Assembly: GCA_038046645.1 (NCBI GenBank)
Contig: JBBSVU010000016.1
Span: forward strand, 76,098-99,289
Source of the DNA: an archaeon
GTDB lineage: Archaea > Iainarchaeota > Iainarchaeia > Iainarchaeales > 0-14-0-20-34-12
Direction: 5' to 3'
Length of the DNA: 23,192 bases
Position 1 is the stretch's first letter. The number at the start of each line of letters is the position of its first letter. The notes below the pieces were generated by a model. That model was not told where the DNA came from. It did no database searches and was given only the letters and a program-made list of their open reading frames with translations. Below, piece after piece: positions 3,103 to 23,192 of this stretch. Both the position numbers and the translations under genes were made by a program.

Positions 3103-4902
3103 CTATTCCCACTCTATGGTGGCAGGCGGCTTGTTTGTCACATCATAGAAAACAGCTGAAATGCCCTTTAATTTCATTAATCTTTTAGCAATTTTGTTCA
3201 ATATTTTTGGATCCATTCTGTAGAAATTAGCAGTCATTGCTTCAGTGCTTTCAATAGGCCTTATGACAACTGCTTCTCCCTTGCCATTTACCTTTAATGG
3301 CAATAAAATAACCGGGCACTGCCATATTTCATAATAGATTTTGTTTTTTTCAAGTTCCTCGCGGACAATTGCATCAGCATTTCTCAATAATGAAATCCTT
3401 TCTTCCGTTAATTTTCCTTCAATCAGTTCAATCGAATCAATCTTTTGCGGTTCAATAGAATATACGGCCCTGTTAATATCAAATATTTCATTTGTTAATC
3501 TTGTGCTCAGGTTTCCAAGTTTTTCCCAATCCAATTTTCCTGAAAGCAAAATTGCGTGCCTGTATGTCCTTGAATCTCCCTGAACACCTACACTCTTCAA
3601 TGGCAGTATTTTTCCTTTGTATTCCGTTCCCTTTAATTTTTTTCCGGCTACTTTTTCTGTTTTCAAAATTGCTTCTTCTAAAACACCGTTAGAACATAAT
3701 ACCCTTATTGCCAACCCCGGGCCGGGAAATGGATGTTTCCACAATATCTTTTCCGGCAAACCTAATTTTTTGCCTAATTTCCTTACCTCGTCTTTGTAAA
3801 GCATATCTAATGGTTCAATCAGATATCCTTTTTCAATCAGTTCAATTATCTGCTCTACCCGGTTATGGTGTGTTTTAATTTTGTCAGCATGTTTGGTCCT
3901 TGCGCTTTCAATTGTATCAGGATAAATAGTTCCTTGGCAAAGCAGCCATTCTTCAGGGTTCATATTCAGCATTTTCAATTTTTTATCTTTAACAATAAGG
4001 AACATTTCCCCAATCATAATCCTTTTGTCTTCAGGATTCATTATCCCGCAGAGCGCTTCCCCAAATTCTTTTTTTGCATCAATTATCTGCAATTTGCAAT
4101 AGCCTAATTTATCTAATGCTTTCTGCACTTCCTTTGCTTCATTCTTTCTCATAAATCCATGGTCTATATGGAAAGCCAATATTTTTTCAGGCCCTATGGC
4201 TTTGCTTAAAATCGCTAAGCAAACTGTGCTGTCAACCCCGCCGCTTGCCAAGACCAAAACTTTTTTATCTCCTACTTGCTTTTTAATCTCTTCAATTTTT
4301 CCATCGATGAAATTTTCCATGCTCCAGTTTCTTTTGCATTTGCAGATTTCGATGAAATTTTCAAGTATTCTCATCCCGCTTTTTGTATGCACTACCTCAG
4401 GATGGAACTGCACACCATAAATTTTCTTGCCAGAGTTCCCAATTGCAGACATTTTGCAATTTTTTGTTGAGCCTATTATTTCAAACCCTTCTGGAAGTTT
4501 GCTTACCTTATCCCCATGGCTCATCCAGACAACCTGCTTCTTACCCAACCCTTTAAACAATTCATTTTCCTTTAAAATGTTCAGTTCAGCAATGCCGTAT
4601 TCTTTCTTTTCCCCTCTTTCCACGTTTCCCTTCAACAAATATGCTAGCAATTGATGCCCATAGCATATTCCTAGCACAGGAATCCCTAATTCAAGCAGTT
4701 TTTTCTCGATTTTTGGGGCATTTTTTTCATAAACCGAATTCGGCCCGCCGCTTAAAATAATGCCTTTTGCCCCTGCAAAGTCCTTTACAGGGCTTTCAGG
4801 CAGCTTTATCTCTGAATAAACACCCAAATCCCTTATTCTTCTGGCAATCAGATTGGCATACTGCCCGCCAAAATCAACCACTATAATTTTATCGTGCAGC
4901 AT
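3103..4902 (-). CDS. guaA: GMP synthase (glutamine-hydrolysing), fused GATase + ATPPase
   Basis: VDFGGQY, LGICYGHQ, GVQFHPE, ASGGVDS, QGTIYPD, IKTHHN, HPFPGPGL and C-terminal KPPATIEWE. ATG at 4902. Confidence 0.97.
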   Translation of the reverse strand: MLHDKIIVVDFGGQYANLIARRIRDLGVYSEIKLPESPVKDFAGAKGIILSGGPNSVYEKNAPKIEKKLLELGIPVLGICYGHQLLAYLLKGNVERGEKKEYGIAELNILKENELFKGLGKKQVVWMSHGDKVSKLPEGFEIIGSTKNCKMSAIGNSGKKIYGVQFHPEVVHTKSGMRILENFIEICKCKRNWSMENFIDGKIEEIKKQVGDKKVLVLASGGVDSTVCLAILSKAIGPEKILAFHIDHGFMRKNEAKEVQKALDKLGYCKLQIIDAKKEFGEALCGIMNPEDKRIMIGEMFLIVKDKKLKMLNMNPEEWLLCQGTIYPDTIESARTKHADKIKTHHNRVEQIIELIEKGYLIEPLDMLYKDEVRKLGKKLGLPEKILWKHPFPGPGLAIRVLCSNGVLEEAILKTEKVAGKKLKGTEYKGKILPLKSVGVQGDSRTYRHAILLSGKLDWEKLGNLSTRLTNEIFDINRAVYSIEPQKIDSIELIEGKLTEERISLLRNADAIVREELEKNKIYYEIWQCPVILLPLKVNGKGEAVVIRPIESTEAMTANFYRMDPKILNKIAKRLMKLKGISAVFYDVTNKPPATIEWE

Positions 4903-5150
4903 ATAATATACTTGCAACGTAGGCTATTTTAAGCAAATTGCTGTATCCTAAAAATTGCCATTTTGCTAATTTTATTATTGGATAAAATTAGAATTTTTAA
5001 AAAACCAAAACCCTTTTTCCCTTTAGGTAAAACCCGCGGTTTTACAACAGTCAAAAATCTAAAAGATTTTTTCCTTTTCCAAATTCTTTTTATAAAAAAT
5101 TATGTCTGCTCAGGAAATATATTTAAACCCAATTGATGATTAATAATATT

Positions 5151-5215
5151 GTGTGTTGGGAGTGGAGGGATAAGTTATACTGCTGAGCAGTTCCCTGACT
5201 TGTCCCTCAAAACAT
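5151..5215 (+). ncRNA. Candidate small structured ncRNA, family not recognised
   Basis: 13-bp stem GAGGGATAAGTTA(5165-5177)/TGACTTGTCCCTC(5196-5208) with two G-U pairs, inner stem ACTGC/GCAGT and outer GTGTT/AACAT. BRE+TATA (CAGGAAA TATATTTAAA, 5111-5127) upstream, T-tract at 5223-5228. Confidence 0.5.
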
Positions 5216-5344
5216 TTACTGATTTTTTGATTTAATTCCCGTCTTAATTACAGGTTTCTTTTTTAGGTCAATTTTTCAGCCGGAGAATGTCGGCAAAAGC
5301 CTTTTATATTCTCAGAACACAAGTACTATACGAGAGGGAATTTT

Positions 5345-5545
5345 ATGGAGGTTGTAGAAGCTAGCATCTCTGGTGGCTGTGACGGTCCTTTTGCTTATCA
5401 TGGTGGAGATTCGGATGAACCATATACACGAGGCCCTTTTGGGTCAGGAATTACCCTAACTATTATCATAAAAGCAGACGGTACAGACGAGGGCAAGGTT
5501 CGCAGATTAAGGGATGAAATCTTGAAATTAGTTCACCATATTTGA
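5345..5545 (+). CDS. 66-aa hypothetical protein
   Basis: ATG with a GAGGG RBS, TTTTATAT box at ~5302-5309, and a GCAAAAAG/CTTTTTGC hairpin just after the stop. No recognised motif. Confidence 0.5.
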   Translation: MEVVEASISGGCDGPFAYHGGDSDEPYTRGPFGSGITLTIIIKADGTDEGKVRRLRDEILKLVHHI

Positions 5546-5654
5546 ATATTGCAAAAAGGCTTTCTTTTTGCCTGCTTTTTTAAGACATATCCACAGATTT
5601 TTAGGTTGTAGTACTGTTTTAATAAGTTTGCGAGCATTTGTTTTTTTGAGTAGT

Positions 5655-5901
5655 GGTGGGATGGCGGAGCCCGGTTAAACGCGCCAGCCTTGAGCCGCCC
5701 TTTTTCTTTTCTTTGCTAAAGAAAAGAAAACCAAATAAAACTAAAGTTTTATTGGTCCCATAAAATTCCATAAGAATTTTATGAGGAAGTGTAGGTTGCC
5801 CAAAAAGAAAAGAAATAATATTTAAGAATACTTAAGGCAATCTTTTGTGCATGTGAGCTGGTTCTCGCAAGAGAGCACGAGTTCAAATCTCGTTCCCACC
5901 G
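5655..5901 (+). tRNA. tRNA-Ser(TGA), interrupted at 37/38 (exons 5655-5694 and 5856-5901)
   Basis: Acceptor GGTGGGA/TCCCACC plus discriminator G. Anticodon stem CCAGC/GCTGG with loop CT-TGA-G|A. Long variable arm TTCTCGCAAGAGAG. T arm ACGAG-TTCAAAT-CTCGT. TATA TTTTAATA at 5617-5624. No encoded CCA. Confidence 0.93.
5695..5855 (+). other. 161-nt tRNA intervening sequence with relaxed BHB motif
   Basis: Central helix CTTG(5689-5692)/CATG(5850-5853) pairs at 3 of 4 positions. 3-nt bulges AG|C and TG|A. Outer helix CGC/GTG. Four internal hairpins. Confidence 0.85.
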
Positions 5902-5908
5902 TTCCATC

Positions 5909-5943
5909 TTTTTTCTTTCTCTTTGCGAAAGAGAAAGAAAAAA
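5909..5943 (+). terminator. Perfect 16-bp pyrimidine/purine hairpin after tRNA-Ser (T-tract terminator or palindromic repeat)
   Basis: TTTTTTCTTTCTCTTT-GCG-AAAGAGAAAGAAAAAA, starting 7 nt after the discriminator base. Confidence 0.6.
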
Positions 5944-6060
5944 ATATAGGTTACAATTAAAATCCAAAAACGGATTTTAATGTACACTAAAACCAAAAGG
6001 TTTTAGTTGTATCAAAAAAGAAAGAGAAACTTTCGGAAGAAAAATAAAAAGGGGTTTAGC

Positions 6061-6615
6061 ATGAAGAATATTTTAGTTGTTTTTTTGTTTGTTTTAATAA
6101 TTTTATTTTCTGGTTGTATTTACCTAAATACACCTAATACTAATATTAAAAATTTGCAGGATATTAATGGAGGCAAAAACGTGTTGTCTGAAATTATTGA
6201 AAATGGAGATACTGTAAAGGTTGAGTATAAGGCATTTGTTGATAATGATGATATGGTTGATTCATCCGAAACCGCTGGCAAACCATTAGAATTTAAGGTA
6301 GGGGCAGGGCAAATGATAAAAGGATTTGATTCTGCTGTTTTAGGCCATAGATTGGGTGATGAATTTGAGGTAACAGTTTCTCCTGACAAAGCTTACGGTA
6401 ATAAGGACCCTAAATTGATAATGGAAATCCCAAAAGCTAACTTGCAGGGGGCAGATCAGGCGCAGAAAGGCATGACCTTGCTTTCTTCAGACAAAAAACT
6501 CTCAGGCATTGTTGTTGAAGTAAAAGAGTCCACAATTAAAGTAGATTTTAACCATCCTTTGGCAGGAAAAACAATGAAATTCTGGATTAAAATTGTTGGC
6601 CTGGAGAAAAAATAA
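6061..6615 (+). CDS. FKBP-type peptidyl-prolyl isomerase (SlyD-like) with lipoprotein-like signal peptide
   Basis: GDTVKVEY, PLEFKVGAGQMIKGFD, PDKAYG and VDFNHPLAGKTMKF. N-terminus MKNILVVFLFVLIILFSGC. ATG 6061 has an AGGGG RBS. Confidence 0.92.
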   Translation: MKNILVVFLFVLIILFSGCIYLNTPNTNIKNLQDINGGKNVLSEIIENGDTVKVEYKAFVDNDDMVDSSETAGKPLEFKVGAGQMIKGFDSAVLGHRLGDEFEVTVSPDKAYGNKDPKLIMEIPKANLQGADQAQKGMTLLSSDKKLSGIVVEVKESTIKVDFNHPLAGKTMKFWIKIVGLEKK

Positions 6616-6673
6616 AATCTAGCAAAAACTGAGGGGAAAATAAAATTTGCAAAATATTTTTTGTGGTGAAAAA

Positions 6674-7087
6674 ATGGAAGACTGCATTTTCTGCAAGATT
6701 GTTGAAGGGAAAATCCCTTCGGCAAAGGTTTTTGAGGATTCAAAAATTTTGGCTTTTTTGGATATTAACCCAATAAACAAAGGTCATATTCTGGTTATTC
6801 CAAAAAAACATTCAGAGAACATTTTTGACATTGCTGAAGATGATTTGAATGAAGTGATGCTTGCGGCAAAAAAGATTTCAAGTGCTTTGAAAAAAGCCAC
6901 AAAATGCACAGGCATTAACCTGATGCAAGGCAACGGAAAATCAGCTTCACAGGTAATAATGCATTTCCACATGCATATTGTCCCTAGATTTGACAATGAC
7001 AACCTTAGTTTCCATTGGGATTCAAAGAAATATGCTGAAAATGAGCTTGCTATTTACTCAGAAATGATTAAAAAAGAATTAAAATAA
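6674..7087 (+). CDS. HIT family hydrolase
   Basis: MEDCIFCKI, FLDINP..GHILVIPKKH and histidine triad HFHMHIV. GGTGA RBS before ATG 6674. Confidence 0.95.
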   Translation: MEDCIFCKIVEGKIPSAKVFEDSKILAFLDINPINKGHILVIPKKHSENIFDIAEDDLNEVMLAAKKISSALKKATKCTGINLMQGNGKSASQVIMHFHMHIVPRFDNDNLSFHWDSKKYAENELAIYSEMIKKELK

Positions 7088-7095
7088 CCGTTCAG

Positions 7096-7776
7096 CTATG
7101 CAAAAGATTTGGGGGATTTTTTCTGATGGACAAGTTCAAATAAGACTTGATATGCCTTCAACAGATCTTTTTCTTCCACAAATATAAGCATCTCAGGCAC
7201 ACAGCTCATAATCTCATGCACATTTACATTATTGAGCATCAATTCAGTTGTCAGAACCAATACTATGCCAGGTGTTTTGACTGCATCATCATGCAAATGT
7301 ATATTTATTTCGGCAAGATCCTCCTGCATCTTTATTATTATTTTTTTTGGGATGACTTTGAGTGATTTTTCCAGATTTTTTTCGTCAATAATTATTTTGA
7401 TTGATTCTTCGCCCTGAACTATCCTAAGGGCTTCGCCGCGTTCAAAATTAATTATTGAAAAAAGTTCTGATATGGCTTCTTGCGCTTCCCTGCCCTTAAT
7501 CAGGGCTATATTTACAAAGTGGCTTCTTGTGGATATTGCTGACTGTGATACTATTGCCTTTGCGTGCTCAAATCTGTTTTTGAATGCACTATCCTTTGGA
7601 TATCTCCTAATTGCACTTATAATTGCATCCTCTGTGGGATACCCCCCCTTTTCAGCAAGTTGTTTTCCAATATGCCTTGCCAGTGCCCTGACATTGATAA
7701 GGTCGCGTTGCAGATCTAACTGAATGCTTGGGTCTTTTTCTATTATTTTCCATATTTCAAAGGATAAATTTGTCAT
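7096..7776 (-). CDS. ACT-domain protein, predicted regulator of amino-acid metabolism
   Basis: N-terminal DPSIQLDLQRDLINVRALARHI...AIISAIRRY and C-terminal ACT-like TPGIVLVLTTELMLNNVNVHEIMSCVPEMLIFVEEKD. Divergent from the ilvE-leu operon. ATG 7776 lies ~25 nt from a TATA box. Confidence 0.75.
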   Translation of the reverse strand: MTNLSFEIWKIIEKDPSIQLDLQRDLINVRALARHIGKQLAEKGGYPTEDAIISAIRRYPKDSAFKNRFEHAKAIVSQSAISTRSHFVNIALIKGREAQEAISELFSIINFERGEALRIVQGEESIKIIIDEKNLEKSLKVIPKKIIIKMQEDLAEINIHLHDDAVKTPGIVLVLTTELMLNNVNVHEIMSCVPEMLIFVEEKDLLKAYQVLFELVHQKKSPKSFA

Positions 7777-13450: not shown

Positions 13451-13578
13451 CATGGGCATTTGTTGGGCTTGGCTTGTCTGCATAGCTTTTTTTGTATATG
13501 TGCTATTTTTCTTCTTGAACAAGCAGGGAAGATTTTAAAAGGCATTATTGATCCTTTACTATATTATAAGAGCTAATT

Positions 13579-13680
13579 GCAGGGTTACCGTAGCGGCCTA
13601 CCGGGCAAGGTTGAGGAATTTTAATAATGCAAAAGCCTTGTGGCTTAGTGCCTTCGGGGGTTCGAATCCTCCACCCTGCA
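13579..13680 (+). tRNA. tRNA-Leu(GAG) with 18-nt intron (13617-13634)
   Basis: Acceptor GCAGGGT/ACCCTGC plus discriminator A. Anticodon stem CAAGG/CCTTG with loop TT-GAG-G|G. Variable arm present. T arm GGGGG-TTCGAAT-CCTCC. Relaxed BHB (TTGA/GCAA, ATT/AAT). TATA TTTTAAAA ~40 nt upstream. Confidence 0.93.
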
Positions 13681-13772
13681 TTCCTGCTCAACCAGAGTTC
13701 CCCAACTTTACAGCATGATTATGCCGTAATCTACAACAAGCCATAAATAGTTCATAAAGAGGTAACCTAGTA

Positions 13773-22175: not shown

Positions 22176-23192
22176 AAATATTAACCTTGTGAGCGAGAAA
22201 TCTGCAACTTTTAAGTTGTAGATGAAAGCGAACATACTTCAGGGGAAATCCACTCTCTCCAATTCTTTATAAAGCCCAAAAAGCTTTTATTTGTTCATGC
22301 TGCTCACATACAAATTCAGGATATATCCATCAAAGGAACAAGAACAAAAGCTATTTTTTGTTTTGGATAAATGCCGCCTTACATACAACAAACTGCTTGA
22401 AATATTAAACAAACAGGAAAAGATAAATCAGAATGAGATACAGGCAGCAATACCAAAACTAAAAGAACAATATCCAGAACTAAATGAAATATATTCCAAA
22501 ACTCTGCAGTATGAATGTTACAGATTATTTTCAAACCTAAGGGCATTATCAAGGCTGAAGAAAAATGGTAAGAACATAGGTTGTTTGCGTTTCAAAGGAA
22601 AAGACTGGTTCAAGACCTTTACTTATAACCAGTCTGGCTTTGTTCTTGAAATAAAGAACAGGAAATATAACAAACTGCATCTTTCAAAGATAGGTTCTCT
22701 TTCTATAAGAACCCACAGAATAATAAATGGAGAAATAAAGCAGGTGCAAATAAAGCGAGAATGTTCAGGAAAATGGTTTGCTTTATTATGCATCCATAAA
22801 AGGGAAGAAAAACCAAGAGTAAAAACAAACAAACAAATAGGCCTTGACTTAGGAACAATAAACTTCATATATGACTCAGATGGAAATCATATTAATCACC
22901 CAAAGTTCCTTAATAAATCACTGAAAAAGTTAGCAGCAGAACAGAGAAAACTCTCAAAGAAGAAGAAAGGTTCAAGCAACAGAATAAAGCAAAAAATAAG
23001 AGTAGCTAAAGTGCATGAAATAATCTGCAACCAAAGGAATGATTTCCTGCATAAGCTATCAAGAAAATATGTAAATAACTATGACTTTATGGCAGCAGAA
23101 GACCTTAACATAAGAAATATAATAGAAAAATCATATTCAGCAAGAAACATAATGGATGCTTCTTGGAACTCTTTTTTACAGATGTTAAGATA
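22176..23192 (+). mobile_element. IS200/IS605-family element with tnpB and no upstream tnpA (IS1341-like); right end outside window
   Basis: Left-end hairpin GAAA-TCTGCAACTT-TT-AAGTTGTAGA (22197-22222) lies upstream of tnpB. The left boundary is inferred to follow TTTAT (22171-22175). Confidence 0.75.
22297..23192 (+). CDS. tnpB: RNA-guided endonuclease TnpB (partial, not in ORF track)
   Basis: Hand translation: MLLTYKFRIYPSKEQ.., LRFKG, FTYNQSGF, LSKIG, GKWFA, RuvC-I IGLDLG (D at 22846), LSKKKKGSSNRIK, DFLHKLS, RuvC-II AAEDL (E at 23098) and IMDASW. Open to the window edge. Confidence 0.96.
   Translation, partial: MLLTYKFRIYPSKEQEQKLFFVLDKCRLTYNKLLEILNKQEKINQNEIQAAIPKLKEQYPELNEIYSKTLQYECYRLFSNLRALSRLKKNGKNIGCLRFKGKDWFKTFTYNQSGFVLEIKNRKYNKLHLSKIGSLSIRTHRIINGEIKQVQIKRECSGKWFALLCIHKREEKPRVKTNKQIGLDLGTINFIYDSDGNHINHPKFLNKSLKKLAAEQRKLSKKKKGSSNRIKQKIRVAKVHEIICNQRNDFLHKLSRKYVNNYDFMAAEDLNIRNIIEKSYSARNIMDASWNSFLQMLR

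Follow-up and report, generated by a model that had tools for sequence, protein, structure and literature searches.

A repeat-inflated, probably cis-spliced 161-nt intron in the tRNA-Ser(UGA) gene of an archaeon of the Iainarchaeales

The tRNA-Ser(UGA) gene of the archaeal genome GCA_038046645.1 (G000) is interrupted in its anticodon loop by a spacer of 161 nt, and this raises the question of whether the locus is one gene with a very long intron or two adjacent halves that are transcribed separately. A preliminary description of the locus had put forward both readings. Here we analyze the locus within the whole 23,192-nt stretch of DNA in which it lies (the window), together with orthologues from the order, including those of a same-genus genome (G001) and of a further orthologue-bearing genome of the order (G003). 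The sequence features described below suggest that tRNA-Ser(UGA) is probably one cis-spliced gene, giving one precursor, with an intron that has been inflated by a repeat.

The G000 assembly consists of 1.17 Mb in 25 contigs and is 89% complete. Its DNA is present in 20 public DNA runs, which are groundwater metagenomes; the run search listed no RNA run that contains it, a result with no bearing on expression. Comparison of four DNA runs (X7, X9, X10, and X12) at the locus showed no variant, indel, or joint, and the loose read ends in these runs matched paralogous tRNA-Ser genes and other copies of the hairpin module described below. By Pfam and homology, the flanking genes include a GMP synthase on the minus strand (3103-4917), which has 90% identity to a protein of a Candidatus Diapherotrites (DPANN) archaeon, an FKBP-type isomerase (6061-6615), and a HIT protein gene. 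Just upstream of the tRNA gene lies a 66-codon ORF (5345-5545) with no match in Pfam, and the region that contains it (5053-5649) has 77% identity to the same-genus genome.

Anatomy and splice motif of the tRNA-Ser(UGA) gene

Default ARAGORN and Rfam at gathering thresholds found no tRNA in the whole window, and a permissive Rfam scan of 4500-7500 returned chance-level matches only (best E = 0.46). The tRNAs of the window were missed because of their introns: with introns allowed, ARAGORN placed a tRNA gene at 5654-5902 with an intron of 161 nt, although under the label Thr(tgt), because both cuts were set 2 nt early. When the exons are joined at 5694|5856, ARAGORN recognizes the spliced 86 nt as tRNA-Ser(tga), in which the variable arm is long and G73 is present. 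The spliced anticodon loop, CTTGAGA, has 7 nt and is the same as in intronless orthologues. The 161-nt spacer at 37/38, as originally described, is recovered both by direct reading of the sequence and by ARAGORN. The gene is made up of a 5' exon (5655-5694; positions 1-37), identical in the same-genus orthologue, an intron at the canonical 37/38 site (5695-5855), which is also supported by its fold and by orthologous introns, and a 3' exon (5856-5901; positions 38-73), in which CCA is not encoded; these and all other features of the locus discussed here are on the plus strand. The tRNA-Leu(gag) gene at 13578-13681 does have the 18-nt intron previously assigned to it, put at 40/41 by ARAGORN, but it had been called a neighbor and lies 7.7 kb from tRNA-Ser(UGA); no hairpin module flanks it.

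A TATA matrix was derived from 31 tRNA upstream regions of G000 (consensus TTTTTAAATA), in which the distance from the start of the box to the mature end is 26-55 nt. Upstream of tRNA-Ser(UGA) the best match, at 7.0 bits, is the TATA-like box TGTTTTAATA at 5615-5624, about 30-31 nt before the mature 5' end, and from its score and position it is likely to be the promoter of the whole gene. Since tRNA promoters in G000 stand at variable distances, 5' leaders probably exist; a search of the 89%-complete assembly for archaeal RNase P RNA (RF00373) gave no match. According to the preliminary description, a second Ser(TGA) gene elsewhere, combined with a lack of mature spliced product, would make this locus a disrupted pseudo-tRNA. 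Neither ARAGORN nor a 14-nt pattern search of the assembly, which is 89% complete, turned up another Ser(UGA) gene, and TCA is the commonest Ser codon in the long ORFs of G000 (5104 of 14,935 Ser codons, 34%), so that the gene is almost certainly needed and used.

The BHB motif at the splice sites was assigned by hand. Its 5' strand (5689-5698) comprises a central helix (5689-5692), a bulge (5693-5695), and an outer helix (5696-5698), and its 3' strand (5847-5856) comprises the outer helix (5847-5849), the central CATG (5850-5853), and a bulge (5854-5856), with cut sites after 5694 and after 5855. In this hand reading the central helix (5689-5692/5850-5853) has Watson-Crick pairs at three of its four positions, U33 standing opposite U5852, and the outer helix (5696-5698/5847-5849) adds three pairs beyond the bulges; an unconstrained free-energy fold picks a slightly different register. 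The complementary flank at the splice site is therefore short, as had been reported. Most orthologous introns end in CAAG plus 2 nt, a perfect partner of the CTTG at bases 32-35, where G000 has CATG. In G003 the motif is fully canonical, with a central helix of 4 bp and an outer helix of 5 bp around an intron of 73 nt. Compared to the canonical 37/38 BHB intron, as set out in the accessible part of PMC4090602, the G000 intron is alike in position, in the presence of genes for EndA and RtcB, and, on the hand reading of the motif, probably in its two 3-nt bulges and a 4-position helix formed with bases 32-35; it is unlike it in its length of 161 nt, its central-helix mismatch, its outer helix of only 3 bp, and a body made of a dispersed repeat.

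The enzymes for such an intron are encoded in G000. There is a single EndA of 174 aa with the Pfam domains tRNA_int_endo_N and tRNA_int_endo, and an RtcB scoring 460.9 bits. According to the accessible text of PMC4090602, an EndA made of a single alpha-type unit demands a canonical motif in the canonical place. Such strictness would fit the position of the intron and would sit uneasily with its imperfect BHB helix, and the latter is a point against the reading as one cis-spliced gene. The RtcB frame (G000 contig C10:44114-45811) encodes 622 aa, and its Pfam match is split by a stretch of about 110 codons that may be an insertion or an intein. Inspection of the Ser(UGA) intron found no RUGAUGA or CUGA pair of a C/D-box guide.

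As a whole, the intron folds with -39.6 kcal/mol (z = -4.61), and none of 200 shuffled sequences folded as well. In the fold, the stem GGTTGCC/GGCAATC (5794-5800/5836-5842) closes a loop that contains a purine tract and a TATA-like box, both treated below. This stem is retained in a same-family orthologue (GTTGCC/GGCAAC) and, with G-U pairs, in G003 (GTTGCC/GGCGGC).

A dispersed hairpin module at tRNA exon edges

The intron carries a hairpin at 5701-5730, formed by a pyrimidine arm (5701-5714), a GCT loop, and a purine arm (5718-5730); its 13 bp (5702-5714/5718-5730) are 100% complementary and start 7 nt after exon 1. It is followed by the linker motif TAGGT (5792-5796), which is common to most modules, and by the purine tract AAAAAGAAAAGAAA (5802-5815), the parallel complement of the pyrimidine arm. 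The module thus consists, in order, of a pyrimidine/purine hairpin, a TAGGT-like linker, and a purine tract that mirrors the purine arm of the hairpin. A second module occupies the 3' trailer (5909-6029), with its hairpin at 5909-5943, TAGGT at 5947-5951, a mirror tract at 6014-6029, and inner hairpins at 5956-5981 and 5986-6007, for which BLAST found a few other copies in G000. Here the hairpin has 16 bp (5909-5924/5928-5943), again 100% complementary, and starts 7 nt after the discriminator (5901). The T-tract hairpins described earlier at 5702-5730 and 5909-5943, 6-7 nt after each exon, are accordingly both real and perfect. The trailer copy discriminates well between a mirror and a direct repeat (16 of 16 vs 13 of 16 positions); the intron copy does so weakly (13/13 vs 12/13), because its core T3CT4CT3 is itself symmetric.

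We scanned G000 for hairpins with a stem of at least 9 bp and sought a mirror tract within 220 nt of each. Among the 53 hairpins obtained, 24 have a perfect mirror tract and three a perfect direct repeat, compared to a mean of 4.2 and a maximum of 11 perfect mirror matches when hairpins and flanks were paired by permutation (200 permutations). Most of the hairpins (34 of 53) have a tRNA exon edge no more than 15 nt away and belong to long introns, leaders, or trailers. In 30 of these 34 the hairpin is the part nearer to the exon and the mirror tract the part farther from it; no violation was seen, and in the other four the mirror tract is unclear. Ten G000 tRNAs, Ser(UGA) included, have introns of 86-221 nt with such a hairpin starting 5-9 nt after exon 1. 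Nine of the hairpins stand 4-7 nt before a tRNA 5' end, and in these genes the best score in the usual promoter window is at most 3.5 bits; from this lack of a TATA-like box in the normal window we infer that the polymerase probably reads through such hairpins. The same module is also found after stop codons of protein genes.

The succession of pyrimidine, purine, and mirror-purine segments is that of a class II intrastrand triplex motif as given in the accessible part of Holder et al., 2015 (PMC4666352), and the module has this order; the three-stranded structure itself is a predicted one. The bacterial PIT elements, BoxC, and TMECO treated in the same source are similar in having a pyrimidine arm, a purine arm, and a reverse-Hoogsteen tract and in being dispersed in many copies. 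The modules of G000 differ from them in being A/T-rich and archaeal, in lying at tRNA exon edges and in introns, and in having expandable linkers. In the accessible text of PMC4666352 the word tRNA is absent and archaea are mentioned only in the description of the database, and our literature searches on triplexes with archaeal tRNA introns and on long tRNA introns of DPANN archaea gave no description of modules of this type in tRNA introns. A related situation is the occurrence of look-alike introns among the tRNAs of Thermoproteales, referred to as 'intron transposition' (Fujishima 2010, cited in PMC4090602, in the part accessible). As there, tRNAs of a single genome, here G000, have similar intron sequences although they differ in identity; unlike there, as far as that account goes, the shared unit also occurs in leaders, trailers, and mRNA 3' ends, and the introns we saw are at the canonical position only.

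A separate observation concerns GAGTAGATTTCCCCTGAAC, a box of some 20 nt that is conserved and lies directly beside five modules (G000 C6:8279, 27753, 121478, and 153974; C17:26668). It also adjoins a TATA-like box that belongs to a protein gene in divergent orientation, and it may be a regulator site.

Orthologous introns and the 57-nt cassette

Orthologues were surveyed in 196 genomes of the order with a 14-nt pattern that represents the anticodon arm on its 5' side. The pattern matched in 87 genomes, and 102 of the 104 listed matches were inspected, most of the extra matches being in coding DNA. This gave 70 candidate genes, which became 69, from 69 genomes, after removal of one false call in a coding region. 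In the order, 38 of the 69 Ser(UGA) genes are intronless and 31 have an intron of 13-161 nt at 37/38, of which that of G000 is the longest, followed by introns of 153, 122, and 121 nt. The pyrimidine-arm hairpin is present in 20 of the 31 introns, and 19 of these 20 have a mirror tract with a full match or one mismatch. In all 69 genes the exons are colinear and adjacent, and no orphan 5' half was found among the 102 inspected matches. A metagenome scan with the 17-nt exon/intron junction reported 119 stretches; the 80 loci read contained no relative, and among them was one unrelated tRNA-Ser-like gene with a short insert. The orthologous introns at the same site, the fold, and the spliced tRNA all support the first of the two original readings, that of a very long intron.

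The intron of G000 owes its length to a cassette of 57 nt in the module linker (5731-5787), which consists of two AT-rich hairpins (5734-5753 and 5759-5783) between the purine arm and the linker motif. The orthologue in G001 has an intron of 104 nt that lacks the cassette, and 103 of its 104 bases match the G000 intron minus 5731-5787. Apart from this single 57-nt cassette the two introns are 99% identical, and on that ground the indel looks recent. The exons are identical at 86 of 86 positions, and flanking coding DNA has 77-84% identity between the two genomes. The leader and trailer of tRNA-Ser(UGA) carry different modules in G000 and G001, and three other tRNA introns (Ser-GCT, Asp, and Tyr) are far more divergent between them, some modules having been exchanged for others and leader-type modules having been added. 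Among the tRNA introns compared, that of Ser(UGA) is thus exceptional in being nearly identical, and since the three others differ so much more, this near-identity may reflect recent exchange and not selection. By eye, related but diverged cassettes with two or four inner hairpins can be seen in the linkers of other modules, trailers included. The idea that the cassette is a high-copy element was abandoned, BLAST giving one other partial copy in G000 (36 nt, 92%).

Other introns of the two genomes were also noted in this comparison. Introns that are longer still occur in G001: the one in a Ser(GCT)-type tRNA has 239 nt, and those of the Asp and Ser(GGA) tRNAs have some 154 nt each (loci L264, L270, and L024), and several of the long G001 introns have a second, leader-type module before exon 2. 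In tRNA-Tyr, the last 75 or so nt of the intron are near-identical between G001 (L273) and G000 (C12:9859-10073), and the module part differs, which points to a second, non-repeat conserved element in this intron, as judged from the two sequences.

One precursor or two adjacent halves

Given the observed gene anatomy, repeat family, orthologues, and encoded enzymes, the proposed course of events for a single gene would be as follows. Transcription would start from the box at 5615-5624 and pass through the whole intron, the T5 tract being read through; the single EndA would cut the precursor at a relaxed BHB at 37/38, and RtcB would join the exons. The intron body would be one copy of the dispersed module, with the 57-nt cassette added to its linker or kept in it, and the T-tract hairpin after each exon would be the module's own hairpin, which in this lineage always adjoins the exon edge and leaves the mirror tract on the far side. 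Any role for the module could be assigned by inference only.

Two related alternatives have to be weighed against this. In the first, which we regard as unlikely, the locus would be in a mixed state: transcripts would mostly be read through and spliced in cis, and a fraction would stop at the T tract or start at the internal TATA-like box ATATTTAAG. Such a locus would be an evolutionary intermediate, as has been proposed for Aeropyrum pernix, and the halves may or may not be used. In the second, for which the chances are slim, the gene would be an adjacent split tRNA, with a 5' half that ends at the T-tract hairpin and a 3' half that starts at about 5847-5851 from the purine run and ATATTTAAG; the halves would pair through their acceptor and anticodon stems, as in A. 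pernix tRNA-Asp(GUC), and be spliced in trans. The points for and against the second apply to the first as well, and in neither case did we see a positive sign of an internal start or stop.

The candidate internal promoter is ATATTTAAG. Its location at 5818-5826 behind a purine run (5802-5815) was confirmed, as was its enclosure within a hairpin (stem 5794-5800/5836-5842, which surrounds both box and purine run). It stands 29 nt before exon 2, much as the likely promoter box stands 30 nt from exon 1, and it scores 6.0 bits, which beats 6 of the 31 tRNA promoters, the very set on which the matrix was trained. Yet 10.8% of random non-ORF anchors reach an equal score, so that ATATTTAAG is at chance level, and it has hardly any counterpart in the order: among 26 orthologous introns of at least 73 nt, only those of G000 and G001, of one genus, reach 5 bits, the other 24 scoring 4.5 bits or less. 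Within G000 there is a mild excess in favor of internal boxes, 4 of the 10 long introns reaching at least 5.9 bits in the equivalent window vs about 11% of null anchors. As a feature of the module, a TATA-like box after the mirror tract was rejected, since 12% of 49 modules have one of at least 6 bits, which equals the null. In G003, only 12 nt separate the mirror tract of a T5 hairpin module from exon 2, which leaves no room for an internal promoter.

A similar weighing applies to the T tracts. Oligo-T is a known termination signal in archaea, and a T5 run stands at 5701-5705, 6 nt past the end of exon 1; this run, together with the same module after the mature 3' end, would suit a 5' half and a 3' half that each end in this way. 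Against this, runs of at least five T occur once per 374 nt on the sense strand of long ORFs in G000 and are present in 546 of 594 ORFs, and orthologues that are certainly cis-spliced carry T5-T6: introns of 13 nt that contain T6 can be spliced only in cis, which indicates that such tracts are tolerated inside pre-tRNA in this order. The proposal that the locus consists of promoter-half-terminator units was therefore not borne out, as its hairpins belong to a genome-wide repeat found in leaders as well, ATATTTAAG is at chance, and T5 runs are common.

The arrangement of the halves was considered in the same way. A two-piece cofold of the putative halves gives about -10 kcal/mol at 37 °C, so that they could pair; this value neither supports nor excludes assembly in trans. 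In some introns a trailer-type module after exon 1 is combined with a leader-type module before exon 2, as in the tRNA-Trp and contig C14 tRNA genes of G000 and in Ser(GGA), Ser(GCT), and Asp of G001, and this head-to-head order resembles the flanks of two juxtaposed genes. The intron sequence itself argues for one gene: a split gene would leave most of it (about 5715-5846, some 130 nt) as untranscribed spacer, and this stretch is hairpin-rich and 99% conserved, in an intron with 103 of 104 bases retained.

The closest precedent is A. pernix tRNA-Asp(GUC), whose '121-nt intron' holds a strong promoter and for which northern blots show two adjacent transcripts (PMC3218864, in its accessible part). 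That case was verified by northern blot and RT-PCR, and the halves were accompanied by a read-through precursor of low abundance, which also gives the mixed state a parallel (PMC3218864). The two loci share an intron-like stretch of more than 100 nt at 37/38, a promoter-like box on the same strand, and halves lying side by side. They differ in that the internal promoter of A. pernix, as reported there, beat 63% of its tRNA promoters, whereas ATATTTAAG is at chance level, and in that A. pernix has a canonical motif continued by a GC-rich stem of 14 bp, and transcripts demonstrated to be separate, whereas the G000 locus has 3 bp beyond the bulges. The split tRNAs of Nanoarchaeum equitans likewise have their break at 37/38, resembling an intron cut in the loop, but according to the accessible parts of PMC4090602 and PMC3218864 their halves lie far apart, have their own promoters, and carry a long complementary leader and trailer. 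In the Iainarchaeales the halves are colinear in all 31 intron-bearing orthologues, and in G000 they are 161 nt apart. If tRNA-Ser(UGA) were split nonetheless, it would represent a second, independent lineage of adjacent split tRNAs.

A wider form of this idea would make the modules transcript-boundary devices, in which polymerase would halt at every exon-following hairpin and start anew from the AT-rich DNA beyond the mirror tract, so that tRNA-Ser(UGA) and, with it, at least ten long-intron tRNAs of G000 would be adjacent split genes assembled in trans. We consider this very unlikely; if true, it would be a mesophilic, genome-wide version of the A. pernix case, with introns turning into split genes. 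That the gene is a disrupted pseudo-tRNA, killed by insertion of a repeat, is scarcely credible, since the imperfect BHB and long insert that would fit this are outweighed by its being the only Ser(UGA) gene found in an assembly of 89% completeness, for the commonest Ser codon, by exons identical to those of G001, and by the retention of an intron at this site in a further 30 genomes.

If the reading as a single cis-spliced gene is correct, the locus has an ordinary intron at the canonical position but of unusual size, beyond the range of 11-129 nt (median 15) given in 2011 for archaeal tRNA introns in sequenced genomes (PMC3218864, accessible part). It would also be a clean example of a dispersed triplex-type repeat with a nested cassette inflating tRNA introns in small DPANN genomes. 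At this locus one could ask whether archaeal polymerases are stopped by oligo-T tracts that lie within structured RNA, and the introns of 104 and 161 nt provide two defined substrates on which to study a minimal EndA of the alpha type.

Two further tRNA genes of G000 with modules in their introns were noted. ARAGORN missed a tRNA on contig C14 (about 22530-22770) whose anticodon loop reads CCT; within its intron two modules stand head to head, and the hairpin of each adjoins an exon. The tRNA-Trp gene (C5:50018-50313, minus strand) has an intron of 221 nt with modules after exon 1 and before exon 2, and by eye a C-box-like AATGATGA can be made out between the modules, after which come bases that complement the beginning of the gene's own 3' exon. 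Such an arrangement recalls the C/D-box guide that is present in tRNA-Trp introns of other archaea.
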